64,000 nucleotides of DNA from Octopus vulgaris (lineage: Eukaryota): assembly GCA_951406725.2 (NCBI GenBank), contig OX597814.1, positions 215,946,001 to 216,010,000 of the forward strand, read 5' to 3'. The notes beneath the pieces were generated by a model. That model did no database searches. It was not told the origin of the DNA and saw only the letters and a program-made list of their open reading frames with translations. Position numbers and translations under genes: made by a program. Within the stretch, counting starts at the first letter, position 1. The number at the start of each line of letters is the position of its first letter. Of the stretch, positions 5,025-55,257 are shown one piece after another.

Positions 5025-5102
<78 letters not shown>

Positions 5103-5104
5103 GA

Positions 5105-20046: not shown

Positions 20047-21599
20047 CTGCAAAATGAAAAGAAAATAATTAGGAAAAAGCATCGTTAAGGCATTGAATAC
20101 ATCATTTGTACTCAAAGTTGGTTTTCACTCCCTCTCTCTCATATTCTTTCTCTTTCTCACAGTTAAGGGAGAGACGAAAATCCTTCCCCTAGTTATTTCA
20201 AACAACATGTTAACACCTCCAATATCCGCCTGCATCCAATTCTTCAAGTGGTTCACTCACATCAGCATTTGGCTACCGTGACACCCTTTCTACAGCAGCT
20301 TTTCTTTTCAGGTTTCTGTTGATGCTAGGTGGGCCACATACATACTGACACACTTCACAGAGATTCACAAAATGAAACTTGAAATTTGGAAAAACATTGT
20401 GATGTGCCTCAAGGGAGGGGAGGTGAGTCAAAAGGGGGTGTTTTTAATGCAGTTTTGAGTTAGAGATGAAAGATATTTTTGTTACAAATGCTTACTTACC
20501 CAACAAAAACTACATCAGCTATGCAAAAGGCCTTCCATAAATGCATTGAAAACGTTATAATGTAATCTGACTGCTATTTCAGAAAATTATTGTTGTCGTC
20601 TTTGAGCATGTAAAAGACAAATTTGGCTGGGGCAAAATGAGTAAGACAAGATAATATAAATGTGTTGCTTCAGTTCTTCAGAAAACAGACGCATACAGAT
20701 ATCCATCTGAAAACGTCAGAAACATTCAGACATGCCAAAAGAATAACATTTAAAAATCTAAATCAAATGAAAGAGGATCAGGGAAAAAATGGCACATGAT
20801 ATGAAATTCGACTAAATATAAGAAAACCCAACATAAAATCTTCTTCTTCTTCTTCTTCACGATCTGCTGGAATTTTCTGTTTGTGATTCATTTACCCACC
20901 ATGCAGTTAAAGAGAAGAAATTACTGAAATTAGTCATTACTCGTTGTAACTTTTGGGAAACTTGAAGATTATCAAATTAGACATTAGTGTGAGGAAAAAT
21001 TGACTTGGAATCCAGCAGAGAAATCAATATTGATTGTTTAGCATGAAAAATTATCCAGATATTTTATTAGCAACCTCAATTACAATTGGGTCAAAGTGGA
21101 AGAGAAATTTCTTGACAAAGAAAAAAAGGGGACCTGCCCCATGACTATGCTTTGTACTTCCACAACTTCAACAGCAACAACCAGTTTGTATCCCCAAGTA
21201 TAATGTAGCAATACAAAATGGTGATGCAATGCTTACAAAGTAAGGGATTTCACACAGGGAAGAAAATAACGAAGAATCAGAAGTTACTCATTTTGCCCCG
21301 TTTACTAATTTTCAAACCTACTGCCATTAATATGTGTGCACCCACCATGTATTTTTATGGCAGACCTGGTGCACAGTTACCACCCCCCAAAACCAACCTT
21401 TCTGTTTATTTTTATTTGCACAGGATTCCTGTTTTCGATGATGGAGATTCCGAACAAGCAAACAACTACACTTTTTTAAAGTAAAGATAAACGCTACACC
21501 TGTTAAAACCATGAAATTTGGCAAAGGTAAAGAATGTGTACACCACCCATTTTTGGTGTGTTCTTTTTTTTCAAAAACTCTTTTGAATTTCTGCTTTCA

Positions 21600-22779
21600 A
21601 TATGCACCAAATGTATACTATGGACGCATAAGAGGTGCAGCAGTGTCAAAGGAAAGCTAACTTGGAAAATAGTTTTTGTATGTGGCAGATGATCAGGAGC
21701 AATAAGCACTAAAAATGTGCAGAGACCAACCTCTGCCACATTCCAGGGAGAAAAACTAGAAATAGTTGATAGCTTCCGTTACCTAGGTGACCAAGTCAGT
21801 AGTGGGGGCAGGTGTGCTGAAAGTGTAACTGCTAGAGTAAGAATAGCTTGGGCAAAGTTCAGAGAGCTCTTACCTCTGCTGGTGACAAAAGGCCTCTCGC
21901 TCAGAGTAAAAGGCAGACTGTATGATGCATGTGTTCGAATAGCCATGCTACATGGCAGTGAAACATAGGCCATGACTGCTGAGGATATGCGTAAGCTCGC
22001 AAGAAATGAAGCCAGTATGCTCCGATGGATGTCTAATGTCAGTGTTCATACTCGACAGAGTGTAAGTACCTTGAGAGAAAAGTTGGGCCTAAGAAGCATC
22101 AGTTGTGGTGTGCAAGAGAGACATTTGCGCTGGTATGGTCATGTGACGAGAATGGATGAAGATAGTTGTGTGAAAAAGTGCCACATCCTAGCGGTGAGGG
22201 AACCTGTGGAAGAGGTAGACTCAGGAAAACCTGGGACGAGGTGGTTAAGCACAACCTTCGAACTTTAGGTCTCACTGAGGAAATGACTAGAGGCCGAGAC
22301 CTATGGAAGTATGCTGTGCGTGAGAAGACCCAGCAGGACTATTGAGACCATAACCCATGGTCTTTACCTGGGATCAAAACTCTACTTGTGAAGACATGTT
22401 GAGGCAAGTGAGAGATCAGAATCAAAATCGAAAGCGATCAACATCAATGGGAATTGTAGCTGTGATACCAGTGCCAGGGGCACATAAGAGATCTATCTGA
22501 ATGTGGCCATTGCCAGCCTGGCCTGGCCTCCGTGCCGGTGGCACGTAAAAAGCACCATCCGATCATGGCCGTTTGCCAGCCTCGTCTGGCACCTGTGTCG
22601 GTGGCACGTAAAAAGCACCCACTACACTCATGGAGTGGTTGGCGTTAGGAAGGGCATCTAGGTGTAGAAACATTGCCAGATCAAGATTGGAGACTGGTGC
22701 AGCCTTCTGGCTTCCCAGACCCCAGTTGAACCGTCCAACCCATGCTAGCATGGAAAGCAGATGCTAAACGATGATGATG
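21600..22779 (+). mobile_element. 5'-truncated RTE-like LINE (RT thumb region plus 3' UTR)
   Basis: EIVDSFRYLG...RIAWAKFREL...KGRLYDACVRIAMLHGSET*...LRWYGHVTRM, with a (GAT)n tail. Confidence 0.9.
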
Positions 22780-24057
22780 AATATAGGGGAATACAGTTCT
22801 GTCAAAAACTCCTGTTTTCAAAATTTTGATTTTCCCCCCACCTCTGCCCCAATTTCTTAATTTTAAATTTGTTTTTAAATATTGTTTTTTTTTCAATTCA
22901 TTGTGTTTTTCTTTAAGAAACACACCATGCCCCTTCCCCCACCTCACCCACCCATCACCTCCCTGCTTTCAAAAAACTAAAAACTCAGAATGTTTCACTT
23001 TCGTCTGATGTTTCCCACATGCATAGAATTCTACTGAAATAGCAGACGTCAAAAATATCAGACCACCACCAGGAATCCCAACGTGCTAGAAACAACAGCT
23101 AAACGACATTATTTCTAGAAAAACTTCCCTGCTTTCAAAAAAGCTAACAGTAAAACATTCGGAAGTGATGGGTGCAGGTTGGGGGAGGGAATTTGAGTTT
23201 CTTTAAGAAAAACTGAAAATAAAAAATTTGTAAAGGTACGTAATCTCTATTTTTCTATGTGGCTTTAAAAAAAATAACTTTGAAAAAAAGTTAAAAATTC
23301 AAAATTGGGGTGGTGGTTAAGGTTATCAACATTTTGAAAACGTATTTTGCAGACAAAATCCTAATCTCCTCTATGGAAGACAGGAACCCAAAGAATTTCT
23401 GGTAAAAAATAATGAGGGGAAGATAAAGTTTCTAAATACACTCATCACAAATACAAATTGCAACATAAAAAAAAACAGGAAATTTCAATTAAAGTTGAGC
23501 TGTAATTTTATAAGTCATACTGAAATTTTACAAAATTCCATTTATTAAATCTACAAAAATTTATTTATTTGAGCAGTTCAATAAATAATTTTTTCCAAAA
23601 CATTATTTCCAAATTCATTAGAAGATAATTAAAGAAAAAAAAAACTATCAATAAAACAAAAAAGATTTGACCTTTATTTGTAGCTATTCCGAAAGACCAT
23701 CTTCTCCTTTTTCAAGAGTCGCATGTCTAAGTGAAAATGAGTGGAGCCCTTTCAATGACAAACATTAAGCAGACGCAATGTTACAAGAAAAAAATTGATT
23801 TCAATTGGAGTTGAACTGCTTTTTTCTCCCTTTCAACATCAAATTTACACATCTATGTCAATTTTAATCCTTTCTACTGTAAACACAAGGCCTGAAAATC
23901 TGGGGGAGAGGATGAGTTGAGTACATTCTCCACAGTACTCAACTGGTACTTATTTTATCGACCCCGAAAGGATGGAAAGGCAAAGTTGACCTTGATGGAA
24001 TTTGACCGCAGAATGTAAAGACTAAAGATATATATATATATATAGATGTGTGTGTAT

Positions 24058-27000
24058 CAGTGGCGTGCGTTGACTCCCGGCGTTGGGCATGCAATTAATT
24101 TCATTGCCCCCCCTTCCGGCAATTTTTCAGTAAAGCATTTTCGTATCCCTACGATTTACATATAAGAGATTCTGAATATGCAGAATAAACAGGGAATAAA
24201 AAATGGCTGTGCAGAGATGATCCTGAAATAAGTGTATTGTTTGTATTATTCTTTGCTCTTCGAAACGTCAGTACTTTCCCATCCTCATTCTCCCTTAGAA
24301 AAGTCTAAAAATCATAAGTGAAATGTAATGAAGATGAAATTGGATTCTGTCAATATTTTTGCATATTCAAAATCTCTGTTAAAGGTAGGAATCCGAAAAA
24401 ATTTTTCACATAAATTCGTTTTTCAAAGGGGTGCGATTCTGCATTAGCCTCTATACCTATCGGTTGAGCTGAATGAAATGATTTAATTAAAAGAACACAT
24501 TTAGTTACATTATATGGCCATGGTTTTAGATCGTTACTCTCTCGAAGACAAGTCAGGTGCTTTATCATGCTACTTGTCAATTCCGGGAAAATTATTGACT
24601 GTTCTGAGACTTACTGAACATTAAAGGACTACGTGTCACGCACACACATTGAAAATACACGCATATACATGAATGCGCACACAATGAAAGATAGAGAAAA
24701 TTCAACATTGTAAAAAGCCTCCCAAAACTGTTGTGGCAGAAGTCAACATCTCTGAGATTGAAACAAGACACTTATTGAAAGTGAAACAAAACACTTATTT
24801 ACGGCCGTAAATAGACTACACCCAGCAGCACAGAAAGGGAAATCTATGTAGGTTAGGTTTCACGAAGAAATCAAAACATTTCTCCTGCGAAACAATACTG
24901 ATGTAAGAAGGTCGAACCTTACGTTATAACAAACACTAAGCAAAACCTGTAATATATGCTCTTTAATATATTATTTTTTTTAATGTTTTAAAATGTTACT
25001 AAGCTCATTTATAAATTAATTCAATTCTTCGATCTTTCTGGGCAAATATATCTATCACATTTTCATAGAAATCTTCTCTTTTCATCAATTCTTGTAATAA
25101 ATCTTTTTCAATTGACATTAGTGCTAACCCAGACAGTCTTCTTTCTCCTGTCGCATTTCTTTGGTATGTTTTAATTCTACTTAATGCAGAAAATGATCGC
25201 TCTATAGACGGAATTGTCAAAATCAACTTGCACAGATTGAAGAGTTCTGGCATAGCTTCAACAAGATCAGTGCTGTTAATGTAACTCATTAAATGACTTA
25301 CACTTGGTTTTTTAAAATCTTTCATTGAATACATCACATTGAGCTCACTTTGTAATCGTATTACATCAAAAAATCTGCCATAAGTTGTTCTTAAAGAATC
25401 TAAAGAGTCCACAGGAAATTGTTTGCAATACTCATCAACTTTGTTGAAATTCAAAAGTTCCATGAATTTAAACTCTTCTAAGGATGAATATCGTGCTTTT
25501 ATTTGGTCAACTATTGTACTTATAATTTTGTTATAAAGCGTTCTATAATGTCGTTGGGGATCAATAGATATATTCTTGGATCTCTGAATTCCGATTCCTG
25601 CATCGACTCCATATTTTTCCCCTAACCTATCATAAAAGACTGAAAAATTATCAAGTTTGTTTTCGAGTACAGTTCTAGTTTTATCTATTTGATCTTTACA
25701 ATACACTATGTCATGACTTTTACTCTGGAGTATGTTAAATAAGATATCAGTAAAAGAAAAAATGTCACTGAATACCTCTAACAAAAATAAGAAATCAGGA
25801 GCTTTTAAAGTGTGTAAGAATCCAATTGCTGAATTTATGGTGGTATCATCCCATGCTTCAGGATTTTCAATGATGTGTTCAAAAAGGCTGATTATGAAAT
25901 TATAATTTTCCTTTGTGGTAATAATAAGATGTGAGGAGTAATTCCATCTAGTTGCTGTTGCTTTCAGAAATCTTTTTTTAACAATGTTATCTAATGCATT
26001 AGCCCTTTTCGGTGATTTCGTAAAAAATGTACCGAGTCCGTTTATTGTAGCAAAAAATATCTTGCATTCTTTCATAGCAGAGCATGATTGTGAAAGAACT
26101 AAATTTAGGATATGGGCACAACAATGAATAAAGATCGCACATTCATATTTCTTACTTTTGCCTGTAACCCATTTAGTTGTCCTGCCATTGTAGCGGCACC
26201 ATCATATGTCTGCGCAATCAATTTGTTTCCACATTCCCACGTCTCAATGCATTTAAAAACATGTTCAGATAAAGCATTTGCAGATCGATCTGCACTAACA
26301 TCACTAAAACCGATAAATCGTTCTTTCGTCACACAGTCTTCTGTAACATAACGTAAAACTGTTGACAGTTGTGAAGATGCTGAGACATCAGATGTCTCAT
26401 CAACAAGAATAGAAACAAACTTAGCTTGGTCAATTTCCTTCTGCATCTCATTCAACATAATTTTATGAATTGCTTCAATCAAGTCATTTTGAATTCTGTT
26501 CGACAGACCAGTGAAGATAGAAGCTGTATCTAAATGACTTTCCATTTGTTTGTCATATTTACTGAACAAATAAACGAGTTCTTTATAATTTCCCCGATTA
26601 TTAGAGCCTTCAGATTCAAAATGACCCCGAAACGATAATTCCTGGTGGCCTAAAAAAATAACAACATCAATCAATCGTTGCAGAATGGATCTGTTTCGTC
26701 GAACTTTCTCATTATGCTGTTGTATGCTTTGATTTTTACGTGCATCTAATTGTAAGTCTATGCGAACATTCCCGAATATTTTAAGGTCTATCAAACATTT
26801 TATTTGCCTTTGAGAACGCTCGTGCTTTAGCATAGCCATATGTAAATTATTTAAATCATCATAGCCTTTATCATTCCAAACGTTTTTTTCTAAGCCAAAA
26901 AGTAAACACGGCCAACAGAATAATTTATTAAGAGCAACACTTCCAGTTAACCATTTCTTCTTTTCATATGAATTAACCTGAAATTGTTTCGTGAATTTCT

Positions 27001-27837
27001 TGTTGTAGCTTCGCAAATTAGGTAAATTCAGTGTTGGTCTCCCACGATTTATAATTAATTTTTTCCCATCGAAGTCCCTTTTAGAAAAACTAGTTCTCAA
27101 AATATCGTTTATAACACACATTTCAGTCATTTTGAAAAAGGCTGCTCTTATTTAAGGACCCACGTGGAAGCGCCGGCGTAAATTTTAAGTCAATTTCAAC
27201 AAAACGGAAAAATACCCTTTGTTAAATTAATTTAAGATTAATTAGCTATTTCTGAAATAAGAAATATAATATAGATATTTTTGCTTTCAAAACTTTCTAA
27301 AAATATGATAGTGCTAACGGATGTTTTGGATAAAAGATTTCAAACTTACATGCGAAGGCTATTCCAACATTTCAGCTGGCTAACTCTAGAATTATGGGAC
27401 AGCTCTTGTTCCAGTCAAAATAGCCAGAGAGGCGTGATATGCGGTCTTAGCACAGCATGACACGCCAAACTGAATTTGTTGAATCACTGAGAGAGAAGGG
27501 GGTGACCATTTCTCCTAGCATATCTTTTAAACAAGTCACTAAGAGAGAGAGGAAGAAGGGACAAACTACCAAAGACAGAGAGAAGGGGGTCTCATGCGAT
27601 CTTCCCAACGCATGACAAGCGATAAATTTATCGAGTCACTAAAATAGAGAGAGAGAGGAAGGAAGGACAAACTAATACAGACAGAGAGGGAGTGTGTATC
27701 ATGCGATCTTCTAAAAGCATTTATCAAAGCAGATGTACGAAGGGGAGACAATATTTCTAAAACAACTGGACGTATTTTCTTTGAAACAAAGAAGGCATGC
27801 AGCGCATACCTTGCATTGCTGAGAGTGCACGCCCCTG
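24058..27837 (-). mobile_element. Full-length hAT DNA transposon (3780 bp)
   Basis: TIRs CAGTGGCGTGC / GCACGCCCCTG. Perfect 8-bp TSD GTGTGTAT at 24050-24057 and 27838-27845. Internal transposase. Confidence 0.93.
25005..27130 (-). pseudogene. Frameshifted hAT transposase (TTF-type Zn finger, DUF4371, hAT dimerisation; ZMYM1-like)
   Basis: Split ORFs 26105-27130 and 25005-26075. The frameshift near 26150 lies just upstream of the canonical KYECAIFIHCCAHILNL motif. Confidence 0.9.
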
Positions 27838-28590
27838 GTGTGTATGTATATATGTGTGTGTGTATATATATATATATGCATATCTAAAAATCATTAAATT
27901 CAAAGATAAAAACAAATTAATTAATAAAAGATCTGAATTTAAACCATCTTGTATGCATAAATTAACTAAAACCTTCAAACATTATAAGGCTTAAAGTTCA
28001 TAATCCTTAATTCTCCACTGTAATACCTTCATAGTCATTTACAACATAGTTATCTCCAGCATTTCTCAATTATTTTTTCCATATAATCTCTGCTTCTGTA
28101 CTTTGATGTTGTGATTTTTCTTATTTAATGTATCTCTCTCACCTTTATTATTTTTCTTATGATTTTTCTCTAATTTTTCCTTTCCTATTTCTTGCCTATG
28201 TTCTCCTAATTTCCTTTTTCTTATTATATTTTCTTTTTTCCTATCTTTTTCCTATCCTTTCTGGGATTTTTCTGATTTTACTTTGTTGGTGGGAGGGGGC
28301 ACAAAAGGACGAAGACAAGAGAGAGGGGGGAAAGAAAGGAAAAAATAAAGAAAGAGGGAAAGAAAGAAAGAAAGGAAGAAAAGAAAGAAAGAAGGAAAGA
28401 GAGAAAGAAAACATGTAAACAAAAACCCATGTATCATGTTACGGCCTTCTAACGCCGCACCCAAGAAATCAAAATGAAAGCAATAAAATTAAGATTGAAA
28501 ACGAATCATTGTAAAAAGATGATGTAACATGTAAATATATTTCTGTAATCAACAAACATTACAGAGTAACCTTTTACTAAAGCGGCTTCA

Positions 28591-29759
28591 ATGTATACTA
28601 TGGACGCATAAGAGTTGCTGCAGTGTCAAAGGAAAGCTAACTTGGAAAATAGTTTTTGTATGTGGCAGATGATCAGGAGCAATAAGCACTAAAAATGTGC
28701 AGAGACCAACCTCTGCCACATTCCAGGGAGAAAAACTAGAAATAGTTGATAGCTTCCGTTACCTAGGTGACCAAGTCAGTAGTGGGGGCAGGTGTGCTGA
28801 AAGTGTAACTGCTAGAGTAAGAATAGCTTGGGCAAAGTTCAGAGAGCTCTTACCTCTGCTGGTGACAAAAGGCCTCTCGCTCAGAGTAAAAGGCAGACTG
28901 TATGATGCATGTGTTCGAATAGCCATGCTACATGGCAGTGAAACATAGGCCATGACTGCTGAGGATATGCGTAAGCTCGCAAGAAATGAAGCCAGTATGC
29001 TCCGATGGATGTCTAATGTCAGTGTTCATACTCGACAGAGTGTAAGTACCTTGAGAGAAAAGTTGGGCCTAAGAAGCATCAGTTGTGGTGTGCAAGAGAG
29101 ACATTTGCGCTGGTATGGTCATGTGACGAGAATGGATGAAGATAGTTGTGTGAAAAAGTGCCACATCCTAGCGGTGAGGGAACCTGTGGAAGAGGTAGAC
29201 TCAGGAAAACCTGGGACGAGGTGGTTAAGCACAACCTTCGAACTTTAGGTCTCACTGAGGAAATGACTAGAGGCCGAGACCTATGGAAGTATGCTGTGCG
29301 TGAGAAGACCCAGCAGGACTATTGAGACCATAACCCATGGTCTTTACCTGGGATCAAAACTCTACTTGTGAAGACCTGTTGAGGCAAGTGAGAGATCAGA
29401 ATCAAAATCGAAAGCGATCAACATCAATGGGAATTGTAGCTGTGATACCAGTGCCAGGGGCACATAAGAGATCTATCTGAATGTGGCCATTGCCAGCCTG
29501 GCCTGGCCTCCGTGCCGGTGGCACGTAAAAAGCACCATCCGATCATGGCCGTTTGCCAGCCTCGTCTGGCACCTGTGTCGGTGGCACGTAAAAAGCACCC
29601 ACTACACTCATGGAGTGGTTGGCGTTAGGAAGGGCATCTAGGTGTAGAAACATTGCCAGATCAAGATTGGAGACTGGTGCAGCCTTCTGGCTTCCCAGAC
29701 CCCAGTTGAACCGTCCAACCCATGCTAGCATGGAAAGCAGATGCTAAACGATGATGATG
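28591..29759 (+). mobile_element. Duplicate of the RTE-like LINE fragment at 21611-22779
   Basis: Near-identical sequence and identical ORF translations. Confidence 0.9.
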
Positions 29760-29886
29760 AATATAGGGGAATACAGTTCTGTCAAAAACTCCTGTTTTCA
29801 AAATTTTGATTTTCCCCCCACCTCTGCCCCAATTTCTTAATTTTAAATTTGTTTTTAAATATTGTTTTTTTTTCAATTCATTGTGT

Positions 29887-32800
29887 GTCAACATCTCTGA
29901 GATTGAAACAAGACACTTATTGAAAGTGAAACAAAACACTTATTTACGGCCGTAAATAGACTACACCCAGCAGCACAGAAAGGGAAATCTATGTAGGTTA
30001 GGTTTCACGAAGAAATCAAAACATTTCTCCTGCGAAACAATACTGATGTAAGAAGGTCGAACCTTACGTTATAACAAACACTAAGCAAAACCTGTAATAT
30101 ATGCTCTTTAATATATTATTTTTTTTAATGTTTTAAAATGTTACTAAGCTCATTTATAAATTAATTCAATTCTTCGATCTTTCTGGGCAAATATATCTAT
30201 CACATTTTCATAGAAATCTTCTCTTTTCATCAATTCTTGTAATAAATCTTTTTCAATTGACATTAGTGCTAACCCAGACAGTCTTCTTTCTCCTGTCGCA
30301 TTTCTTTGGTATGTTTTAATTCTACTTAATGCAGAAAATGATCGCTCTATAGACGGAATTGTCAAAATCAACTTGCACAGATTGAAGAGTTCTGGCATAG
30401 CTTCAACAAGATCAGTGCTGTTAATGTAACTCATTAAATGACTTACACTTGGTTTTTTAAAATCTTTCATTGAATACATCACATTGAGCTCACTTTGTAA
30501 TCGTATTACATCAAAAAATCTGCCATAAGTTGTTCTTAAAGAATCTAAAGAGTCCACAGGAAATTGTTTGCAATACTCATCAACTTTGTTGAAATTCAAA
30601 AGTTCCATGAATTTAAACTCTTCTAAGGATGAATATCGTGCTTTTATTTGGTCAACTATTGTACTTATAATTTTGTTATAAAACGTTCTATAATGTCGTT
30701 GGGGATCAATAGATATATTCTTGGATCTCTGAATTCCGATTCCTGCATCGACTCCATATTTTTCCCCTAACCTATCATAAAAGACTGAAAAATTATCAAG
30801 TTTGTTTTCGAGTACAGTTCTAGTTTTATCTATTTGCTGTTTACAATACACTATGTCATGACTTTTACTCTGGAGTATGTTAAATAAAATATCAGTAAAA
30901 GAAAAAATGTCACTGAATACCTCTAACAAAAATAAGAAATCAGGAGCTTTTAAAGTGTGTAAGAATCCAATTGCTGAATTTATGGTGGTATCATCCCATG
31001 CTTCAGGATTTTCAATGATGTGTTCAAAAAGGCTGATTATGAAATTATAATTTTCCTTTGTGGTAATAATAAGATGTGAGGAGTAATTCCATCTAGTTGC
31101 TGTTGCTTTCAGAAATCTTTTTTTAACAATGTTATCTAATGCATTAGCCCTTTTCGGTGATTTCGTAAAAAATGTACCGAGTCCGTTTATTGTAGCAAAA
31201 AATATCTTGCATTCTTTCATAGCAGAGCATGATTGTGAAAGAACTAAATTTAGGATATGGGCACAACAATATAAAGATCGCACATTCATATTTCTTACTT
31301 TTGCCTGTAACCCATTTAGTTGTCCTGCCATTGTAGCGGCACCATCATATGTCTGCGCAATCAATTTGTTTCCACATTCCCACGTCTCAATGCATTTAAA
31401 AACATGTTCAGATAAAGCATTTGCAGATCGATCTGCACTAACATCACTAAAACCGATAAATCGTTCTTTCGTCACACAGTCTTCTGTAACATAACGTAAA
31501 ACTGTTGACAGTTGTGAAGATGCTGAGACATCAGATGTCTCATCAACAAGAATAGAAACAAACTTAGCTTGGTCAATTTCCTTCTGCATCTCATTCAACA
31601 TAATTTTATGAATTGCTTCAATCAAGTCATTTTGAATTCTGTTCGACAGACCAGTGAAGATAGAAGCTGTATCTAAATGACTTTCCATTTGTTTGTCATA
31701 TTTACTGAACAAATAAACAAGTTCTTTATAATTTCCCCGATTATTAGAGCCTTCAGATTCAAAATGACCCCGAAACGATAATTCCTGGTGGCCTAAAAAA
31801 ATAACAACATCAATCAATCGTTGCAGAATGGATCTGTTTCGTCGAACTTTCTCATTATGCTGTTGTATGCTTTGATTTTTACGTGCATCTAATTGTAAGT
31901 CTATGCGAACATTCCCGAATATTTTAAGGTCTATCAAACATTTTATATGCCTTTGAGAACGCTCGTGCTTTAGCATAGCCATATGTAAATTATTTAAATC
32001 ATCATAGCCTTTATCATTCCAAACATTTTTTTCTAAGCCAAAAAGTAAACACGGCCAACAGAATAATTTATTAAGAGCAACACTTCCAGTTAACCATTTC
32101 TTCTTTTCATATGAATTAACCTGAAATTGTTTCGTGAATTTCTTGTTGTAGCTTCGCAAATTAGGTAAATTCGGTGTTGGTCTCCCACGATTTATAATTA
32201 ATTTTTTCCCATCGAAGTCCCTTTTAGAAAAACTAGTTCTCAAAATATCGTTTATAACACACATTTCACTCATTTTGAAAAAGGCTGCTCTTATTTAAGG
32301 ACCCACATGGAAGCGCCGGCGTAAATTTTAAGTCAATTTCAACAAAACGGAAAAATACCCTTTGTTAAATTAATTTAAGATTAATTAGCTATTTCTGAAA
32401 TAAGAAATATAATATAGATATTTTTGCTTTCAAAACTTTCTAAAAATATGATAGTGCTAACGGATGTTTTGGATAAAAGATTTCAAACTTACATGCGAAG
32501 GCTATTCCAACATTTCAGCTGGCTAACTCTAGAATTATGGGACAGCTCTTGTTCCAGTCAAAATAGCCAGAGAGGCGTGATATGCGGTCTTAGCACAGCA
32601 TGACACGCCAAACTGAATTTGTTGAATCACTGAGAGAGAAGGGGGTGACCATTTCTCCTAGCATATCTTTTAAACAAGTCACTAAGAGAGAGAGGAAGAA
32701 GGGACAAACTACCAAAGACAGAGAGAAGGGGGTCTCATGCGATCTTCCCAACGCATGACAAGCGATAAATTTATCGAGTCACTAAAATAGAGAGAGAGAG

Positions 32801-32980
32801 GAAGGAAGGACAAACTAATACAGACAGAGAGGGAGTGTGTATCATGCGATCTTCTAAAAACATTTATCAAAGCAGATGTACGAAGGGGAGACAATATTTC
32901 TAAAACAACTGGACGTATTTTCTTTGAAACAAAGAAGGCATGCAGCGCATACCTTGCATTGCTGAGAGTGCACGCCCCTG
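29887..32980 (-). mobile_element. Second hAT copy lacking its 3' end and TIR
   Basis: Corresponds to 24742-27837. Only the TIR ending at 32980 remains. Confidence 0.9.
30150..32273 (-). CDS. hAT transposase, 707 aa uninterrupted ORF (ZMYM1/DUF4371-like)
   Basis: LFCWPCLLF...KHERSQRH Zn finger, FRGH, DETSD, YDGA, CCAH, TRW and ERSFSAL motifs all in one frame. Confidence 0.88.
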   Translation of the reverse strand: MSEMCVINDILRTSFSKRDFDGKKLIINRGRPTPNLPNLRSYNKKFTKQFQVNSYEKKKWLTGSVALNKLFCWPCLLFGLEKNVWNDKGYDDLNNLHMAMLKHERSQRHIKCLIDLKIFGNVRIDLQLDARKNQSIQQHNEKVRRNRSILQRLIDVVIFLGHQELSFRGHFESEGSNNRGNYKELVYLFSKYDKQMESHLDTASIFTGLSNRIQNDLIEAIHKIMLNEMQKEIDQAKFVSILVDETSDVSASSQLSTVLRYVTEDCVTKERFIGFSDVSADRSANALSEHVFKCIETWECGNKLIAQTYDGAATMAGQLNGLQAKVRNMNVRSLYCCAHILNLVLSQSCSAMKECKIFFATINGLGTFFTKSPKRANALDNIVKKRFLKATATRWNYSSHLIITTKENYNFIISLFEHIIENPEAWDDTTINSAIGFLHTLKAPDFLFLLEVFSDIFSFTDILFNILQSKSHDIVYCKQQIDKTRTVLENKLDNFSVFYDRLGEKYGVDAGIGIQRSKNISIDPQRHYRTFYNKIISTIVDQIKARYSSLEEFKFMELLNFNKVDEYCKQFPVDSLDSLRTTYGRFFDVIRLQSELNVMYSMKDFKKPSVSHLMSYINSTDLVEAMPELFNLCKLILTIPSIERSFSALSRIKTYQRNATGERRLSGLALMSIEKDLLQELMKREDFYENVIDIFAQKDRRIELIYK

Positions 32981-33877
32981 GTGTGTATGTATATATGTGT
33001 GTGTGTATATATATATATATGCATATCTAAAAATCATTAAATTCAAAGATAAAAACAAATTAATTAATAAAAGATCTGAATTTAAACCATCTTGTATGCA
33101 TAAATTAACTAAAACCTTCAAACATTATAAGGCTTAAAGTTCATAATCCTTAATTCTCCACTGTAATACCTTCATAGTCATTTACAACATAGTTATCTCC
33201 AGCATTTCTCAATTATTTTTTCCATATAATCTCTGCTTCTGTACTTTGATGTTGTGATTTTTCTTATTTAATGTATCTCTCTCACCTTTATTATTTTTCT
33301 TATGATTTTTCTCTAATTTTTCCTTTCCTATTTCTTGCCTATGTTCTCCTAATTTCCTTTTTCTTATTATATTTTCTTTTTTCCTATCTTTTTCCTATCC
33401 TTTCTGGGATTTTTCTGATTTTACTTTGTTGGTGGGAGGGGGCACAAAAGGACGAAGACAAGAGAGAGGGGGGGAAAGAAAGGAAAAAATAAAGAAAGAG
33501 GGAAAGAAAGAAAGAAAGGAAGAAAAGAAAGAAAGAAGGGAAAGAGAGAAAGAAAACATGTAAACAAAAACCCATGTATCATGTTACGGCCTTTTAACGC
33601 CGCACCCAAGAAATCAAAATGAAAGCAATAAAATTAAGATTGAAAACGAATCATTGTAAAAAGATGATGTAACATGTAAATATATTTCCGTAATCAACAA
33701 ACATTACAGAGTAACCTTTTACTAAAGCGGCTTCAATTCATAGAAAACCTGTTGGGAAATCTTGGATAAATGATTCCCACGTTTTCACTAAAAACCATAC
33801 AGCATTTCAAACTTTTAATTTGTGCCTCTCGCTCCGCATTTATCAATGTATACAGGTATTGTATATGTCTGTGTGTG

Positions 33878-35475: not shown

Positions 35476-37777
35476 ATGTTTCTTTATTATCCACACAGGG
35501 CTGAACACAGACAGGACAAATTACAAAGTAGAGCTTTTCTTTTTGGGGGAGAAAAAAAAACAATCAATAGGGATCGTGTATCACAGAAATGTCATGATGT
35601 AATGTGTAAAGGGGGAAGCAAATAAGGTTTATCCGTGGAAAGAAATGCCTACGGAAAAGACCATGGTAACCTCGGTCAATAATGTCACATATTAACACAT
35701 TTGTTTGCAAGTAGGTAACCCTCTGTTTTAAATTTTTCCGGGTTCGTAAGATTATGGTCAAGGTGGCTTCGTCATTCATACGTGCCATCCTTGCTACATT
35801 CACCCATCTTTTTTTTAAACATTCGCTAGACAAAACTGGCCTCTCTACTCTCACTTTCCTTTTCAAGTGATACTTGAAGAAGTTGATGAGAGATTGACCA
35901 GAGAGGAAAGTATTTGTCTCTAATCCTTTCAGATGCGTCCACCAGATACATTCTTTCACCATAGCCACAAGTATGATGAAAATAGCTCTTCCTTCCCGTT
36001 TGAAGAAAGGAGGCGTGACGATATTGACGATAGACTCAGCTGATAAACCGACTCATCCCACACGTAACAGCAGTCATTTGACATAAGCCCACAGGTTGGA
36101 AATGGTTGGACATTGCATGAGTGCATGCAGAACATTTTCATCGCTCTGACCACAGGTCGGCCCTGTGTTTCTCGAGCTGTGTCTGTAGAGCTTATCCTAA
36201 ACAGGTAGCGCTTCTTGGTAGCACTACCAAGCCAGGGATCTCTGGAAGTTGTCCATAGGTCCTGGCCCGAAAGTCGTCCTGAACAGGCGGGTCAGGTATT
36301 CCTCATCAACACTCAGGTTCACCCCAAGCTCGTTGTACCTCCCCTTCACTAATCCCCTAAAGAATGCTTTGGTTGTGTTGAAGTCGCTTAAGGTCAACCC
36401 AGGACAGCATAGTTGCTTGAGAGCAACGCGACACTCGCGGTGCCATTTGCCCTTCCTCGGACTCTTTTTGATCCATGACTGCAGTGTGGTCATGGAGACA
36501 AGTTGCAGGAAAGCGTTCCTCACAAACGGCGACCACACCTGTTCACCGTCGTCTACATAGAGCCGGAGATGTCGCAGTCTCAGCGCGTGTCTGCGCATCA
36601 TCAACTACAGCATGCCCAGTCCTCCTTTTAACGGGTGTTGACAGCAAATGGATTGCTTGACCATCAGGACACATACTTTCCACAAGAAGCGGTAGGGAAT
36701 GCGTTCTAGTTTGGTGATGGAAGGGTCAGGACAAGGTACAACGGTCAGGCGGTAGTAGATGATGGACGCGATGTACATGTTCGCCACCTCCACCTGAACT
36801 TTTAGGGACAGTTTCCTCTCGGCCTATTGCCGGTGAGAGTGACCACCCTACTCGTTATCTCATTCCAGTTCTTCTCCATTTGGAGGTCCGGACCAAACCA
36901 GACTCCAAGCAACTCAACCTGACCATCGGTCCAGCATCCCACAATGGACGCGCTGGTGGACGGCATGGGTTTGCTTCTCCAGGTGCCAAGCCACAAGCCC
37001 ACTGACTTTTTCTGGTTGATTTTTGCTCCTGTCACCGCTTTGTAGTCTTCCTGTGTCTCACCAACCTACTCAATGTGCTCGTGGCTAGACACTATGACAG
37101 TGACGTCGTCCACGTATGCGGAAACGCTTGACCCGCATCCCAATTCTCGCGGGATGTCCCTCAGAGTCACCAGCTTCCGCAGTAATTGCTCGAGAGTCAA
37201 TACGTATAGAAGCGACGAGAGGGGGCATCCCTGACAGACCAAATGTGCAATGTCGAAAGGTCTTGATAGATGTCCATTTACGCGAATTACCGAGCGGATA
37301 CCTCTGTACAAAGCAGCTATCCAGCCGCGGAAGACGGGACCGAAACCAGCCACTCTGAGGACCGCCTCTAAGTATCGATAGTCTACCCTATCGAAAGCTT
37401 TTGATTGATCCAAATTGATCAGGACCCCACCCATGCCAGGTTCCTTAACTATCCTGTCTATGATGTTGCGTATCAGATGGAGGTTGCCATGGATGCTCCA
37501 GCCCACACAGTGCACGTTTGTGCCTTGTTGACCAGTTTCTCGATGACAAGCGCCAACCTCTTGGCTAACACCTTAGCCAAAATTTTCAAGTCTGCATTAA
37601 GCAGAGTGATGGGCATAAAGTTATCTATTAAGTCCCCTTTGTTTAGATCTTTCTTCAGCAGTGTTACAGCTCCTTGGCTCACAAAACCAGGGATGCTCCC
37701 ATTTTGCTGCCAATTGCCGTGCACCACTGCCAAAATGTCTCCAAATAAGTCTGGCATACAACTGTAAAGCTCGTAGG
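35476..37777 (-). mobile_element. 5'-truncated, decayed Tx1/L1-clade LINE (RT)
   Basis: PITLLNADLKILAKVLA, LDQSKAFDRV, QGCPLSSLLY, SAYVDD, LLGVWFG and GGLGM motifs across frameshifts. Confidence 0.88.
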
Positions 37778-38497
37778 GTAGTTTTCAAAAGAAGAAAACC
37801 TGAAACAGTTTTTATAGGAAATAAAAGTGAATGTAGGTCACCTCGATAGAATTTATTTGGTTTTCTCCAGTGGTGGCCACTAGTTGGCATTTATTTTTCC
37901 ACAAACCTTCAGTGTGTCTATGCACATACACATGCATGCACACACACACACAATCATGCACGCGTACATATATATATTAGTAGCAGATAGCATTTTCCCA
38001 CAAGTCCCCCACCTGTTATTCTCTCCTGTTACACTAGGAAATTTATGAAAGTATAGTGACTTCTTAGATCTTTTCGAAGCATCTATATGTCAAATGCATG
38101 CTACAGAGGAAAAAGCCTTTGTATAGTTTCCCATAATTTAGTTAGGAATAATATATATATATGTATATATATACATATATATATTTATATATAAATCAAA
38201 TCAAAAATCGAAATCGATCAACATCAATGGAAATTGCAGCTGTGATACCAGTGCCGGTGGTACATAAGAGAACCATCTGAACGTGGCCGTTGCCAGCATC
38301 GACCTGACTGGCCTCAAGCCGGTGGCACGTAAAAGCACCCACTACACTCACGGAGTGGTTGGCGTTAGGAAGGGCATCCAGCCATAGAAACATTGCCAGA
38401 TCAGACTGGGCCTGGTGCAGCCTTCTGGCTTCCAGACCCCAGTTGAACCATCCAACCCATGCTAGCATGGAAAGCGGACGCTAAACAATGATGATGA

Positions 38498-38545
<48 letters not shown>

Positions 38546-39244: not shown

Positions 39245-42200
39245 GGTCACTTTAGAGTGCTACTGGTAACATGTAGCCCAGTACAACCTGTTGCATGGTA
39301 GGGTCGTCGGCGACTATACCGGCAACCCCACCAAGCTTGCTTGGTGAGGAGGATGTTTATTGGACACCTTGTGGGATGAAAAACAAAACCCATCAAAGGG
39401 CGGAGGAACTCTTGAGAGTCAACAGCCTTCCAATAAATGCCTTAAGGCTGTATCATGCACGGGGACATAGAAATAATCGGACTAAATACCCGATCGTGCA
39501 GTTAAACCATTGGGAGTGAAGGACTCCTAGCCTTTGTTAGGGCATCCTTCTAGGAGAAGGTAACTCAAGTAACTGGGATAACTCCAACATAAAACCTGCG
39601 GCTCAGTGGTTACCGATGATGTTGACTTGTTCTTCTTTATGTATTATGGCTGATGTTGCTTAGTGAGTGGGATTGACTCAGTGCACAGCCTTTCCTCACT
39701 TTAAAAAAAATCTTCTTGCACAGGCATTGCAAGTTGAAAGAGTCTGGCCCGGCAGGGGCTCCAGAGCATCACAGTCTGAACCCGGCCGTCATCATGCTAC
39801 TGTGATAGAACCAAAGAAAATATTGAATATTGGCTGTTGGAATGTACGGACACTGCTTGACCGCAAGTCCTCTGAATGTCCTGAAAGAAGGACTGCGCTT
39901 GTTGCGAAGGAGCTTCAATGCTATGATCTTGACATCGTTGCTTTATCTGAGACGAGATTACCTGGAGATGGTCATCTTACAGAATCTTGTGGAAAATATA
40001 CATTCTTTTGGAAAGGGAGGAATGAAGAGTTTAGAGAAGCTGGAGTGGCATTTGCTGTTAAGACTACTCTTGTGGACAAGTTGGAAGAATTCCCAGTCAG
40101 AATTAATGAGCGTCTTATGTCCATTAGAATTCCTTTGGTTAAAGGAAATTATCTGACCTTGATGAGTGTGTATGCTCCAACTATGTGCTATACTGATGAC
40201 GAAAAACTTTCTCTCTACCATGCTTTGAAGTGTATTATAAGAAATATCTCTCGGGCAGATAAAGTCATCGTACTGGGTGACTTTAATGCTAGAGTGGGTT
40301 GGGATTTTAACACATGGACTGTAATTGGAAAGCATGGGGTGGGGAAGTGTAATAGTAATGGCATGCTTTTGCTGCAGATGTGTGAGGAGCTGCGTCTGTG
40401 TGTTACCAATACCATGTTTCAACAAAAGAATAAGTTTAAGATGCATCCTGCATCTAAAGAATGGCATATTCTGGATTACATCCTTGTTAGGGTGCATGAC
40501 AGACAGGATGTGCAGTGTGTTCGTGTTCTTCGTGGAGCTGAGTGTTGGACTGACCACTGCCTAGTACGTGCAAAAGTGAAATTAGTCACAAAACATAAAA
40601 TCCGAGCTGCAGGGATGACCCTGCCTAAAAGACTGAATGTTGATTGTCTTAGGTGTAATAGTGTGAAGAGAACTTTACGATATTGGGAAGGATTGATCGA
40701 CAGCTTAAAAAGTCAGTTTATGATATAGGCACGAAAGTTCTGGGATTGATACAAAGAAAGCATCAAGATTGGTTTAAAGAAAATGATGAACATATAGATG
40801 ATTTATTGGTTGACAAAAGACGTACTTTGTCACGCTATTTGTCAGCAAAGCCACAGGAAAGGGAAGTGTTGCATAGGGAACTCAAAGACGTAAAATCACA
40901 TGTGTGGCAAAGGCTCTCTCAGATGTTTGGTAAGATATGGACTAGTGAATCTGTACCTGAGGACTGGAGAGATACAGTAATGGTGGCCTTGCATAAGGGA
41001 AAGGGCAACAGGAATGATTGTGGTAATTATAGGTGAGTATCATTGCTGTTTGTCGTAGGAAAGGTTTTATGCAGGGTACTTCTGGATCGTCTGCTGAAAT
41101 ACGTTGCAGATTGTGTTCTTCCAGAAAGTCAATCTGGCTTTCATGTGGGACGTGGCAGTGCTGATATGATCTTTTCAGCTAGACAGCTTCAGGAGAAGTG
41201 TGTGGATTTGTATCAGGTTTTTGTCGATCTGACAAAAGCCTTTGATACTGTCAATAGAAAAGGATTGTGGAGAGTCCTCAAGATAATTTGGGTGTCCTGA
41301 AAAGTTCCTTGCTTTGGTTAGGTCTTTTCATGAAGACATGAATGGAAAGGTGAATGCTAAAGGGAAAATGTCGGAGCCCATTTCAATACAAAATGGAGTG
41401 AAACGGGGATATTTTGGCACCGACCCTATTTGCCATATATTTTGTGATGGTGTTCTGTATTGCATTCAGAAACTGCAGATACGGTGTTTACATCCATTAT
41501 CGAACCTCTGGCAGCATATTTAATATCAGGCGCTTTGCTGCAAAAACAAAGGATTTACCTCTATCATAAGAGACCCTTTGTATGCAGATGATTGTGATCT
41601 AGTAGTGCACACAGATTGATATGCAACACATTTTGAATGCATTCTCTGATGCTTGTAGTGCCTTAGGATTGACAGTCAATCTCAAGAAAACAGTTGTCAT
41701 GTACCAACCTGCCCCTGGTAAGCAGTATAGTGTACCAAATATCTATGTGTATGGTAAACGACTTGATGTACTTGATCAGTTTATCTATGTGGGAGGCACT
41801 ATTAATAGATATAGCAATTTGGATGATGAAATTCCATATAGGTTTAGGAAAGCAAGTGTTGCTTTCGAAAGGCTAGAAAAGCGCCTCTGGAGTCGGCGAG
41901 ACATATGCAGAAAGACAAAGATAAAGGTGTACAAGGCATGTGTGCTCCCTTCTCTTCTCTATGCTGGTGAGACATGGGTCACATATCAATACCACTTTAA
42001 ACAACTGGAACGTTTCCATCAGATGTGTCTCAGACGGATCTATGGCATTAAGGAGGAGGACCGCATCAGTGATCTTGAAATATTGGAAGGCTCTCAGTGT
42101 GAAAGTATAGAAGCTCTTGTGTTAAAGCAAAGGCTCAAATGGAGTGGTCGTCTGGTCAGGATGAAGGATTCAAGGATGCCAAAACAACTCTTTTATGGAG

Positions 42201-42826
42201 AGTTAGCTAAAGGAGAACGACCTGCACATAAACCAAAAAAGAGGTATAAGGACTTGCTGAAGGCTTCCTTAAGAGATGCTTGCATCTCTCCTGACACATG
42301 AGAAGGCATAGCTATTGATCGTAGCAGTTGGAGAAGGATTGTGCATGAGGGGACAGCCACTTTTGAGAAATCTCGAGTTGCACATGAGAAAGTAAGGTGA
42401 GATATCAGGAAGGGCATCACTGTTACACTTCCAGATGGGAAGGTTCTTCCTATGATGCTGACATGCAGTGTCTGTGCAAGACCCTGCCTCAGTAAAGCTG
42501 GACTCAAGAGTCATCTTCATAGTCATAAAACGAGACAGATGAGTGACAACCTGGCCACTGGTGGTGGTGTAACACACCATACTAATCATATCTGTCGGGC
42601 ATGTGGAAAAGAGTGTAATTGGGCAGAGGGGCTTAAACAACATGCAAAGGTACATGAAGCCCAGTTGCAACTACAGCTGGCTATTACAGGTAAAGGTTTT
42701 AGTTGCCAATTCTGTTCAAGACATTGTAGATCTTTAGCTGGGCTAAAACGTCACACTCGATCACAGCACCAATAACAGTTAAGCTTCGTGCAATGGCCAT
42801 ACTCGATAACGAGGGGGCAGCCATCA
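39245..42826 (+). mobile_element. RTE-clade LINE with intact ends but internal deletions and frameshifts (APE-RT-3xC2H2)
   Basis: NIGCWNVRTL, ALSETR, VYAPT, LGDFNARVG, LDYILV, TDH; QSGF, FVDLTKAFD, LYADD, LLYAGETW, LKWSG; three C2H2 fingers; (ATGT)n tail. Confidence 0.93.
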
Positions 42827-47078: not shown

Positions 47079-48649
47079 CATCATTTAACGTCCGTTCTCC
47101 ATGCTAGCATGGGTTGGACGGTTCGACCGGGGATCTTGGAAGCCAGAAGGCTGCACCAGGCTCCAGTCTTATCTGGCAGTGTTTCTACAGTTGGATGCCC
47201 TTCCTAACACCAACCACTCCGTGAGTGTAGTGGGTGCTTTTTACGTGCCACCTGCACAGGTGCCAGGCGAGGCTGGCAATGGCCACGGTCGGATTGGTGC
47301 ATTTTACGTGCCACTGGCACGGAAGCCAGTCGAGGTGGCACTGGCATCGGCCACGATTCGGATAGTGCTTTTTACGTACCACCAGTCCAGGGGTCCTGGC
47401 ATCTGCCGGGTGCCAGTCATAGGATTGGTTCAATTTCGATTCCCATTTCGATTTCACTTGCCCCAACAGGTCTTCGCAAGCATGGGTGCCTGTCATCGGA
47501 TGAGGTTCGATATCGACTTTGCTTGCCTCAACAGGTCTTTGTGTGTCCAAGGGAGGAAGGGCATGCATAAGTGGGCTGGACTCACTTGTCCTGCCTGGTC
47601 TTCTCACGCACAGCATATTTCCAAAGGTCTCGGTCACTGGTCATTTCCTCAGTGAGGGCTAAAGTTCAAAGGTCGTGCTTCACCACCTCGTCCCAGGTTT
47701 TCCTGGGTCTACCTCTTCTACGGGTTCCCTCAACTGCTAGGGATTGGCACTTTTGCACACACCTATCCTCATCCATTCTCGCCACATGACCATACCAGCG
47801 CAATCGTCTCTCTTGCACACCACAACTGATGCTTCTTAGGTCCAACATTTCTCTCAAGGTACTAACGCTCTGTCGAGGATGCACACTGACATTACACATC
47901 CATCGGAGCATACTGGCTTCATTCCTTGCGACCTTACGCATGTCCTCAGCAGTCACGGCCCATGTTTCACTGCCATGTAGCATGGCTGTTCGTACACATG
48001 CATCATACAGTCTGCCTTTTACTCCGAGCGAGAGGCCTTTAGTCACCAGCAGAGGTAAGAGCTCCCTGAACTTTGCCCAGGCTATTCTTACTCTAGTAGT
48101 TACACTTTCAGTGCACCCACCCCCACTACTGACTTGGTCACCTAGATAACGGAAGCTATCAACTACTTCTAGTTTTTCCCCCTGGAAAGTGGCGGAAGTT
48201 GTTTTATGCAGATTTTCAGAGTTTATTGCTCCTGAGCATCTTCCACATACAAAAACTATCTTCCCAGTTAGCTTTCCTTTGACATTGCTGCACCTCTTAT
48301 GTGTCCATAGCTTACACTGGGTACATCTTATAGAGTTTCTACCTACACCCTTTCTACAGATTGAGCAGGGCCATCTTCCTGAAGACATTTGTGGTTTGTC
48401 TACCTTCCTACTTATTAGTACTTTGGTTTTAGCTAGGTTGATTCTAAGGCTCCTCGATTCTAATCCCTCCTTCCACACCTGGAACTTCTCCTCCAGTTCT
48501 GATAGTGACTCACCAATTAGAGCAAGATCGTCAGCATAGAGGAGCTCCCAGGGGCAACCTGTCTTGAATTCCTCCGTAATTGCCTGGAGGCCTATGATAA
48601 ATAGGAGGGGGCTGAGGACTGAACCCTGGTGGACCCCTACCTCTACTTT
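47079..48649 (-). mobile_element. 5'-truncated RTE-like LINE with a PHD-like insertion after the RT core; coding part uninterrupted
   Basis: GVHQGSVLSPLLF, LLYADD, INLAKTK, CSIC..CTQC..H..C..CGRC, FRYLG, RRGRPRKTW, with a (GAT)n tail. Confidence 0.92.
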
Positions 48650-49822: not shown

Positions 49823-50359
49823 CTAGCAGAGACACCCACCTAGCATTGCTTGGGATTAAAATGGTATAGATTTTTATTGTTTTATATGTTTTAGTCACAT
49901 GACTCCAGCCATGCTGGTGCACCACCTTAAAGTTGAAGAAATCAACTACAGGATTTATTCTTTGTAAGCCTAGTACTTAGTCTATCAGTGTACTTTGACA
50001 AATAGCTAAGTTATGGGGATATAAGCACAGTAAAATCAGTTGTCAATCAATGGTAGGGGTAGAAACACAGACACACACACATATGCATATATATACAGAC
50101 ACACATATATAAATATATAACAATAATTTAAATCCCTTTCTGTGTGTGTAAAAGATTATAACGGCCGTATTTTTCAACTGATTTTCTCCAAACTGTGAAC
50201 ATATATTACTTATGTTCCAGGTGTGGTGTCAGACTCTTAAAATTCTTCAAATAATGAGTAACGGGCCCCTTGGGGGCAGAAAACATCCATTCCTGGGTTA
50301 TGTTGAGAAGGGACATAACTCTTTGTGAAGTAAGTTTCAGAAATTGATTGTCTCCTTTA

Positions 50360-51546
50360 CAATAGCTCTTAGTTTCAGGGCTGAACCTGGATACCTCCTC
50401 CCAAGATGGTCTTGCTGCTTCCTGCTGCAGCCACTCTACCACTGGCCATAAATCGGCATCTTCCGTATGTCCCCTCTGTACTTCTCCAGTTGATACATAA
50501 CCAGTCACTGTAGTATGTTTGCTCTTTGTACTTTGCACTTTTCTTCCTGCACAATGCTTGCAGTCCAATTCACAAGGATGACGACTCAAACTGTCCGTAT
50601 CACCATGTACCTGCCCCGGACGGTGCTGAACCTCATAGTTGTGTTGGTCCAGTTTTCCTAGCCGGCATGTTAATTGTCCCTCCGGGTTCTGTAGTGTCTT
50701 CAGCCACTTGAGTGCTGCATGGTCCGTTCTGATGGTAAAGTGCGAACAGTACAGGTGCGGATGGAAAAAGTTGATGCTCCTCATCACCGCCAAAAGCTCC
50801 TCACGGGTTACACAGTAGTTCCGCTCAGGTGGGCTAAGCTTTTTACTGTGATACGCCACCACATATTCCTTGTCGCCCTTCCTCTGTAGCTTGTGTAACG
50901 GTGCAGCCAACGTCGCAAAGTTTCCTATGAGGCACCTATAATAGGTGCCCAGTCCTAAGAGACTTCTCAATTCCTTTGCACCAGTAGGAACCAGCCAATC
51001 CTTCACTGCTACTTTACTTAGCACTCTATGCCCCACATAGCATCTCACTGTACCGTCTCCATTCTGTACGACAACAATGACTGACGACCAGGGACTGCTT
51101 GGCCTTTTCACTACTCCCTTCATTTCCCGCCGCTGCACTGGGACCATCCTCCGAGCTCGCTGCTTCATTGAGCGATGGCCACCTGGGTCGATATAGTGCT
51201 CCACCAGGTCCGTGCGACCAACGTCCAGATGTCCTGCACACCTTGCCAGCAGCTGCTTCATCCACAACACCCGAGTGCCATCCAAGAACCAGCGACTCAG
51301 TGTGAACCGCTCCTGAAACTGCACAGATAGACCACCACCTCCTTCAACTGCCCTCCTATAGTGACGCAACTGACCCTGCCACTGGTCCACTGCCTGGCAC
51401 AGTCCCATGATTTGACCTCTAAAAACCGCTTGTGCCACTTCCAAGAAATTGGCTGACCCAACCAGCGCTTTATCAGCTCCTGCCTCTACCAGGGTCCGTC
51501 CGACCCTCACTCGAGCTTTCACCGTGCACTGCCTGTCGGGCTCCAC
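50360..51546 (-). mobile_element. Internally deleted Ty3/gypsy pol relic
   Basis: SSPWSS, ELRSLLGLGTYYR, VVAYHSKKLSPPERNYCVTREELLAV, TDHAALKWL and HRPG..H..DSLSR motifs. The YxDD core is absent. Confidence 0.85.
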
Positions 51547-54465: not shown

Positions 54466-55257
54466 AGTGGTGCAGCATATATATACATATATATATATGC
54501 ATATATACACACACATATATATATATATAAGTAGGTACGGCAAATTTAGGGTGAATACTTGATAAGTGTAAGCACCTGTATACACCAGTAAGTGGCAGAG
54601 GTGAGAGGGAATATATCAAATAAAATCAAAAACAGAACACAAAGGATGTCGCGGTATATGTGTTTCAAGCTTTATAAACGACCTGTTCTTACATCAGTGT
54701 ATAATAAATATTTAAAAAATGGTTTAACGCTCTCTTCAGGCGCATGCATTGTTATTCCAAAGAGTTACACCACACTATAAAAAAATATGAAAAGTACATG
54801 TAGTATTACCCATAATAATAGGTATATCATATCTCCCTGAGAAAGTGTATTAGTAAAATTTCGTAACTATATAGGCTTGTAGGGGATCATTGGATTTTGA
54901 AAATCTGTCCATACTGTATCACCAGTCAACATAGAGTGAATGTTAAATAGATTTGAATGAGTTCATTCTTCTTGTAAGGAAATAGAAATAAAGAGAAGGA
55001 AAAGGAAAAAAGAAGAAAAAATAGGGAGAACATGGAGAGAAAAAATAGATAGAAAGAATAGAGATAAAAAAAATAAAGGGGAAATAGAGAGAAAAAAAGG
55101 AAGAAAAAGAAGGAAGAGGAGAAAATGGAGAGAGAAGACGTTAAAGTAAGAAACAAGGGAAGAGGACAATGTAAGTAAAAGATAAGGGTAATAAAACTAG
55201 TAAAGAAATAGTAAAATTTCAAATATAAGGATAATAATGTTAATAATGTTAGAACCA

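Follow-up and report, generated by a model that had tools for sequence, protein, structure and literature searches.

A decayed, tandem-duplicated hAT insertion in Octopus vulgaris whose transposase frame was probably reopened by chance through a 2-bp deletion

ZMYM1, ZBED and GTF2IRD2 are domesticated hAT transposases that exist as conserved, expressed host genes. Like the locus described here, Kat1 is of hAT origin, immobile and frameshifted, but according to the account in PMC4763223 its frameshift is bypassed in translation, and it is a conserved, expressed host gene with a function that has been shown or inferred. Compensatory frameshift pairs are a described class of change that mostly passes through an uncompensated state (PMC8935012). 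The pairs that Biba, Klink and Bazykin describe in that source share with ours two indels less than 100 nt apart and a net multiple of three, but those are fixed in host genes across species whereas the octopus pair lies in a decayed transposon copy. Amongst mobile elements, Tip-type hATs such as BuT2 likewise combine DUF4371 with a hAT dimerisation domain, short terminal inverted repeats (TIRs), an 8-bp target site duplication (TSD) and a length of 2.5-5 kb. The BuT2 gene is given five exons in PMC3942097, whereas in the octopus family the gene is one open exon, in which a single optional intron is annotated. Hermes (PDB 4D1Q, 6DWW) is the best profile and fold match, with the D-D-E, CxxH and Trp residues aligning at ~14% identity, but the reopened octopus protein lacks two residues ahead of CxxH and another four ahead of the catalytic Glu. 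The nearest relatives are octopus proteins of the DUF4371/hAT family named "finger MYM-type 1-like" (P0002, P0123 and P0124 of O. vulgaris; also P0136 and P0173), which have the same domains and 96-97% identity but retain KKYECAIFIH, PSTTASVERS, P388 and R400, all of which are lost from the copies reported here. Octopus ZBED genes, which are distinct from this family, are mentioned in PMC10027918, and a literature search judged at the level of search results found no paper on the octopus hAT family, its intron or this locus.

The window, that is the whole stretch of 64,000 nucleotides analysed, is AT-rich, microsatellite-laden animal DNA. It contains a full-length hAT element on the minus strand at 24058-27837 (copy 1), 3780 bp long with both TIRs and a frameshifted transposase gene. 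The TIRs are 11 bp each and match at 10 of 11 positions, one at 24058-24068 (plus strand, at the 3' end of the transposase gene) and the other at 27827-27837 (minus strand, at the 5' end). They are flanked by the 8-bp TSD GTGTGTAT at 24050-24057 and 27838-27845, a pair of the size typical of hAT elements although the location of the left one inside an AT/GT microsatellite weakens this evidence slightly. Both the TIR length and the element length lie within the ranges that PMC3942097 gives for hAT elements, 10-25 bp and 2.5-5 kb. The transposase shows a Hermes-like DDE arrangement, CxxH, the Trp and a C-terminal dimerisation region. A domain search returned PF14291 at E 4e-22, and PF05699 (cut-off 21.4) scored 21.0 bits for P0001, the protein of the second copy, and 21.8 bits for copy 1. 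The domains and the Hermes matches agree with the DUF4371/hAT assignment made previously, and the common DUF4371 domain is the one feature that suggests a placement in the Tip group of hAT.

The hAT family is young and multi-copy. At least 26 closely related, named O. vulgaris gene models belong to it, the nearest proteins are named O. vulgaris models that are 96-97% identical, and contig depth over the element in four public runs is tens of times the flank depth, although depth does not equal copy number. It is also present with few differences in O. bimaculoides (P0173 and P0134 are so named; also P0136), and therefore the family is either older than the split of these two species or has moved from one to the other. 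In one family derivative, found at about half the family depth in run X2 and also in X15, 1035 bp of the transposase gene are skipped (26014-27050); it was not among the joints listed for X1 or X4. It is likely to be a non-autonomous deletion subfamily.

Comparison of the window with itself revealed a tandem block in the order A-X-B / A'-B'. The first unit spans 21610-28592 and consists of A (21610-22906, with LINE and SINE-like fragments), X (22907-24741) and B (24742-28592). The second spans 28590-33737 and consists of A' (28590-29886, 99.77% identical to A) and B' (29887-33737, 99.56% identical to B), without X. Of the 1297 bases of A, 3 are different in A', and the B/B' alignment of 3849 bases contains 13 substitutions plus 3 indels, so that the whole block holds 16 substitutions per ~5150 bp and the copies are ~0.3% apart. 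The tandem junction from B to A' is gapless with a 3-bp overlap (AAT), and the junction from A' to B' at 29886/29887 is blunt. Two of the three A/A' differences (28615 and 28619) fall less than 30 bp from the tandem junction, which fits either error-prone repair synthesis or a consensus error at the junction. The missing 1835-bp X segment holds the TIR at 24058, and copy 2 has, as was claimed from the letters, lost one TIR; the 5' TIR is present at 32970-32980 and is followed by GTGTGTAT again at 32981-32988. Since only a single end is left, copy 2 cannot be excised. Neither copy is an autonomous transposon: copy 1 has both TIRs but is frameshifted, copy 2 has the ORF but one TIR, and the spacing around the catalytic residues is altered (by -2 before CxxH and -4 before E643).

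The transposase gene of copy 2 is a minus-strand ORF at 30150-32273 encoding P0001, a protein of 707 aa with DUF4371, a hAT dimerisation region and a Hermes-like fold; P0001 itself was absent from the protein collection searched. In copy 1 the gene (25005-27130, minus strand) is split by a 4-bp deletion into frames of 341 aa (26105-27130) and 356 aa (25005-26075), and KYECAIFIHCCAHILNL falls in the other reading frame. The translated ORF of copy 2 reads QAKVRNMNVRSLYCCAH. The 4-bp deletion, of TTTC in the family, is common to both copies and lies at 26147/26148 in copy 1 and 31290/31291 in copy 2. Only 20 nt away, at 31270/31271, copy 2 lacks the GA found at 26126-26127 of copy 1, which gives a net change of -6 nt. 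Among the three B/B' indels this is the sole one within the element, the others being two extra G in G-runs outside it. In copy 2 ten family residues are exchanged for eight new ones (328-335). The -4 and -2 nt changes are both derived, have no stop between them and sum to a multiple of three, as in other compensatory frameshift pairs. The sequence-only reading had described a canonical hAT motif thrown out of frame in copy 1 by a shift near 26150, the loss of GA from copy 2 and a frame open for 707 aa, and in all of this it proved accurate. The same is true of SQRH in copy 2 versus SQRQ in copy 1 (a difference at 26804), and of the retention in copy 2 of CxxH and the D-D-E residues, with D244, D310, E643, C336 and H339 all present.

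The order of the two losses was determined from the state of the family, taken from named proteins and from contigs of public runs. A run search listed 24 matching sets, all of them contigs and with no RNA set named among them, which has no bearing on expression; the best shared 0.56 of the words. Contigs of 4 of these runs were compared with copy 1. In all four runs, family contigs carry an extra TTTC behind 26147. Apart from these 4 gap letters, a contig from X2 (25992-26386) has a single letter different from copy 1, and one from X15 (25985-26500) likewise has no gap letters beyond the 4. At the protein level, all three unspliced named O. vulgaris models that cover the region read KVRKKYECAIFIHC[C/Y]AH, as do two further family models, one of them named O. 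bimaculoides. GA is ancestral on this comparison, since the family contigs that span the site differ by the 4 gap letters and have GA present; both copies lost the 4 bp, and copy 2 then lost GA as well. The contigs and relatives thus bear out the earlier proposal that the seemingly intact ORF of copy 2 is the derived state, reached by a common frameshift followed by a compensating deletion. Two other arrangements were considered and rejected. That the family already reads NMNVRSLYCCAH conflicts with the named relatives and the family contigs, which read otherwise. That copy 2 represents the intact ancestor, with a 2-bp gain in copy 1, conflicts with the family contigs, which carry GA plus four more letters.

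A multi-copy element within a 99.6% duplicate is hard to polish, and the block could be an artefact of assembly in which the units are alleles or mis-polished copies placed in tandem, or in which the GA loss is a consensus error. We judge this unlikely, and equally doubtful its corollary that the reopened frame is an allele of one insertion or is not real. It retains some weight since neither the duplication nor the GA deletion was seen among the listed differences of the four contig sets: the GA deletion was not among the best 12 of 41 indels (contigs drop rare variants), and the skip from 22906 to 24742, the return from 28592 to 21610 and an empty-site joint were not among the best 15 of 253 joints. 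The letter differences drawn from the run contigs are the best 40 of 258, with the repeats at both element ends skipped. The 16 substitutions per ~5150 bp are also fewer than expected from a species heterozygosity of 1.22% (from PMC10700109, whose reference may not be the source of the window), and the published reference described there was built from nanopore reads with short-read polishing. A weak hint in the same direction is that, in the DNA contig sets, the duplicated pieces outside the transposon have about the depth of unduplicated ones, bearing in mind that depth is not copy number (X1, 111 vs 110.5; X4, 53 and 44 vs 45; X2, 20 vs 32). Against an artefact, the window has no N, and no gap interrupts the tandem junction, whose 3-bp overlap neither allele would supply. 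The GA deletion lies outside any homopolymer or dinucleotide run, and copy 2 retains the 4-bp deletion and a further 12-bp lesion, which is not what simple polishing to the family sequence would give. The runs, moreover, probably come from other animals, and a duplication that is polymorphic could be missing from them.

The 12-bp lesion, which the earlier description had missed, is an in-frame deletion common to both copies that lies directly before the catalytic E643 (30349/30350; 25204/25205 in copy 1) and changes the family PSTTASVERSFS to PSIERSFS. The 12 missing letters were seen in family contigs of three of the four runs. When spacing was scored among 120 homologues from the protein search, the gap from this P to the E was 6 in all 109 scorable relatives (11 of the 120 could not be scored) and 2 in P0001, and Hermes chains found by profile search show the same six-residue gap in IPASSAASERTFS. 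The spacing between the second Asp and the CxxH Cys was likewise constant in 113 of 113 scorable relatives (7 of the 120 not scorable) but is two residues shorter in P0001, which has also lost the His preceding that Cys, kept in 107 of 113. Both copies carry P388L and R400H, at positions that are P in 95 and R in 86 of 96 relatives. PMC4763223 cites H268 of the Hermes CxxH as belonging to the active site. P0001 therefore cannot be taken as an intact transposase, with its invariant spacings broken and P388L and R400H present. H162, F189, I224 and the PSIER deletion were found, among the 26 named O. vulgaris models listed, in only the two that match the window copies, and since its markers are limited to these the damaged lineage shows no visible spread.

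Structure prediction agrees with the spacing. With four residues missing in the loop leading into the helix of the catalytic Glu, residues 641-660 of P0001 have AlphaFold pLDDT values of 56 and 53 and E643 lies outside a helix. At the matching positions of P0124, an unbroken relative (541-570), the values are 79, 74 and 61, and E550 is in a helix. The frameshifted strand, which leads to CxxH with two residues missing, scores 69 and 68 in P0001 (331-350) against 88 and 83 in P0124 (231-250). Both models were built on matched alignments; they differ in length (707 aa for P0001, 614 aa for P0124). Hermes is the best match of both models, and P0124 is the nearer (TM by target 0.59 vs 0.51, 6dww_A); a single-sequence search of the PDB gave no match, Hermes being found by profile search. 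From the spacing and from the models, the latter built on an alignment of unbroken relatives, P0001 is predicted to fold but not to cut. The presence of all the named catalytic letters in P0001 counts against a dead enzyme.

How readily such a frame is restored was estimated by an exhaustive trial on copy 1, in which indels were placed at every position and success was scored as an ORF of at least 695 aa. The frame was reopened by 99 of 3849 2-bp deletions, 102 of 3846 5-bp deletions, ~2.5% of 1-bp insertions and ~2.3% of 4-bp insertions, and by none of the deletions of 1, 3, 4 or 6 bp. An indel of the correct phase thus succeeds at ~2.5% of positions, the stop-free stretch open to the second indel being 99 positions, and over all phases the rate is ~0.85% (about 1%) per indel. 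Reopening is unlikely at any single locus, which counts against chance. Across the genome chance suffices: this locus was picked from a genome-wide scan, the family has copies in the tens and elements in decay number thousands; for O. vulgaris, PMC13282606 reports more than 11,000 recently active repeat insertions, 153 of them hAT.

Both frameshifting indels lie within an annotated intron, together with CxxH and W395. It covers 30870-31298 of copy 2 (429 nt, minus strand) and 25725-26155 of copy 1 (431 nt), with a GTAAGA donor, a pyrimidine tract and a CAG acceptor, and its removal leaves a 564-aa frame in either copy. The main family transcript may be spliced in this way, with the GTAAGA donor following GLQAK and the CAG preceding SKSHD, and the copies would then give the same 564-aa product. 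If the intron is real, the compensation is relevant to unspliced RNA only, because both indels would be intronic; we think this improbable as an account of the compensation, and it is compatible with a chance repair. The spliced product would be without CxxH, the conserved Trp and a large part of the insertion domain, and that it serves as a built-in non-cutting isoform seems similarly doubtful. The signals for splicing are canonical, P0128 and P0129 agree letter for letter with parts of the spliced copy-2 and copy-1 products, respectively, and the join is present in 19 of the 26 named O. vulgaris models listed (of the others, 3 are unspliced and 4 do not contain the region), being annotated even for copy 2 despite its open frame. 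The gene models, however, come from EVidenceModeler and PASA, which merged predictions with transcripts (PMC10700109), and a single predictor could make the same guess for each of several near-identical copies. The O. bimaculoides models P0136 and P0173 read through the donor, a third model uses the same acceptor with another donor, and the region is retained in longer homologues. Contigs of X15, which is RNA by guess but may be DNA, run through the intron unbroken, and no splice joint was among the best 15 of 253 joints in the contigs of the four runs. The family-wide annotation may reflect either a habit of the predictor or a non-cutting isoform that truly exists; a genuine intron would mean that the hAT family has an inactive isoform built in.

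Taking these findings together, we propose, with a probability of roughly two in three, that the locus is a decayed, tandem-duplicated young octopus hAT insertion in which the 2-bp deletion of copy 2 reopened the frame by chance, giving a transposase predicted to be catalytically dead. The insertion, which has TIRs and an 8-bp TSD, had lost 4 bp and 12 bp and acquired at least six or seven missense changes by the time the copies separated; this common damage presumably accrued in a gene that was broken already and no longer under selection. The tandem block may have arisen by microhomology-type repair or a template switch, as suggested by the 3-bp overlap and the two substitutions less than 30 bp from the junction. 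Copy 2 then lost GA and the 1835-bp segment bearing one TIR, the second indel presumably landing by chance in the 99-position stop-free stretch. Any product would have a Hermes-like fold and might bind element DNA but would not cut it.

On the common branch there are seven missense changes relative to named relatives (L162H, I189F, V224I, S360A, P388L, R400H and V462I) and two deletions, against at least two synonymous changes among the best 40 of 258 letter differences; T376A and E428D, also present in relatives, were left out of the count. Between the copies eight codons differ, three synonymously, four by missense changes on the copy-1 side and one by a missense change on the copy-2 side. 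Copy 2 is ancestral at four of the five amino-acid differences, H109 and Q479 as judged from Octopus relatives and S2 and P34 from the more distant P0004 and P0007, its own derived change being L531F (L in 71 of 96 relatives). This 4-to-1 split leans towards selection or domestication, yet the changes are too few, a fair split giving such a result in 6 of 32 cases. The lesions of both copies look like drift. One copy-1 codon (25692-25694) carries two substitutions (Q479D) that are private to copy 1 among the named models.

The sequence-only reading went further and suggested an early domestication or an element-silencing repressor. Dominant-negative transposase derivatives are known, and an immobile copy 2 could in principle encode a dead but full-length subunit, kept by selection and acting by binding element ends or poisoning transposase oligomers. 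The 707-aa frame is open, C72, C75, H103 and H109 of the N terminus and the C-terminal dimerisation region are kept, one TIR is gone while the 5' end is intact, and the reopening and the 4-to-1 split described above can be counted on the same side. Immobilisation by end loss is a mark of domestication, although plain decay typically does likewise. Several observations speak against selection. The lesions are older than the reopening and strike invariant spacings, copy 2 carries the missense L531F, the copies are too near at 0.3% apart for any selection signature, and chance is enough given the number of family copies and decaying elements. Truncated products able to bind DNA would, in addition, already come from copy 1 and from the annotated spliced form. 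We consider a selected repressor very improbable, and hardly more can be said for a pseudogene brought back as a full-length, non-cutting trans-repressor of the young transposon family. The order of events and the family assignment of the sequence-only reading stand, but its step to domestication or repression is not supported, given the damaged spacings, P388L, R400H, the drift-like lesions, the chance reopening and the position of the indels within an annotated intron. With odds of about two to one, what is left is a decayed transposon with a compensatory frameshift pair that is most likely neutral, domestication being unsupported.

As such, the locus provides a well-polarised compensatory frameshift pair with the intermediate preserved alongside it as copy 1. 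It also illustrates that an open transposase frame can be both derived and damaged, and scans for "intact" or "active" elements would miscount such copies. If copy 2 were expressed and spreading, it would be an unusual chance to see how transposase domestication begins, and were it a trans-repressor, that first step could be watched directly with the broken ancestral state next door.

Other repeats are found throughout the window. Several copies of one LINE-like 3' fragment, 77-90% alike, lie at 21599-22350, 28589-29330, 47577-48329, 53757-54466 and 55802-56558, and are often followed by a shorter repeat that is also present at 5100-5600, 38200-38500, 47080-47370 and 60880-61150. Judged by eye from their ORFs, the broken frames at 35564-37434, 39842-42775 and 50206-51408 have the look of retroelement remnants (reverse-transcriptase-like, endonuclease-like and LTR pol-like).
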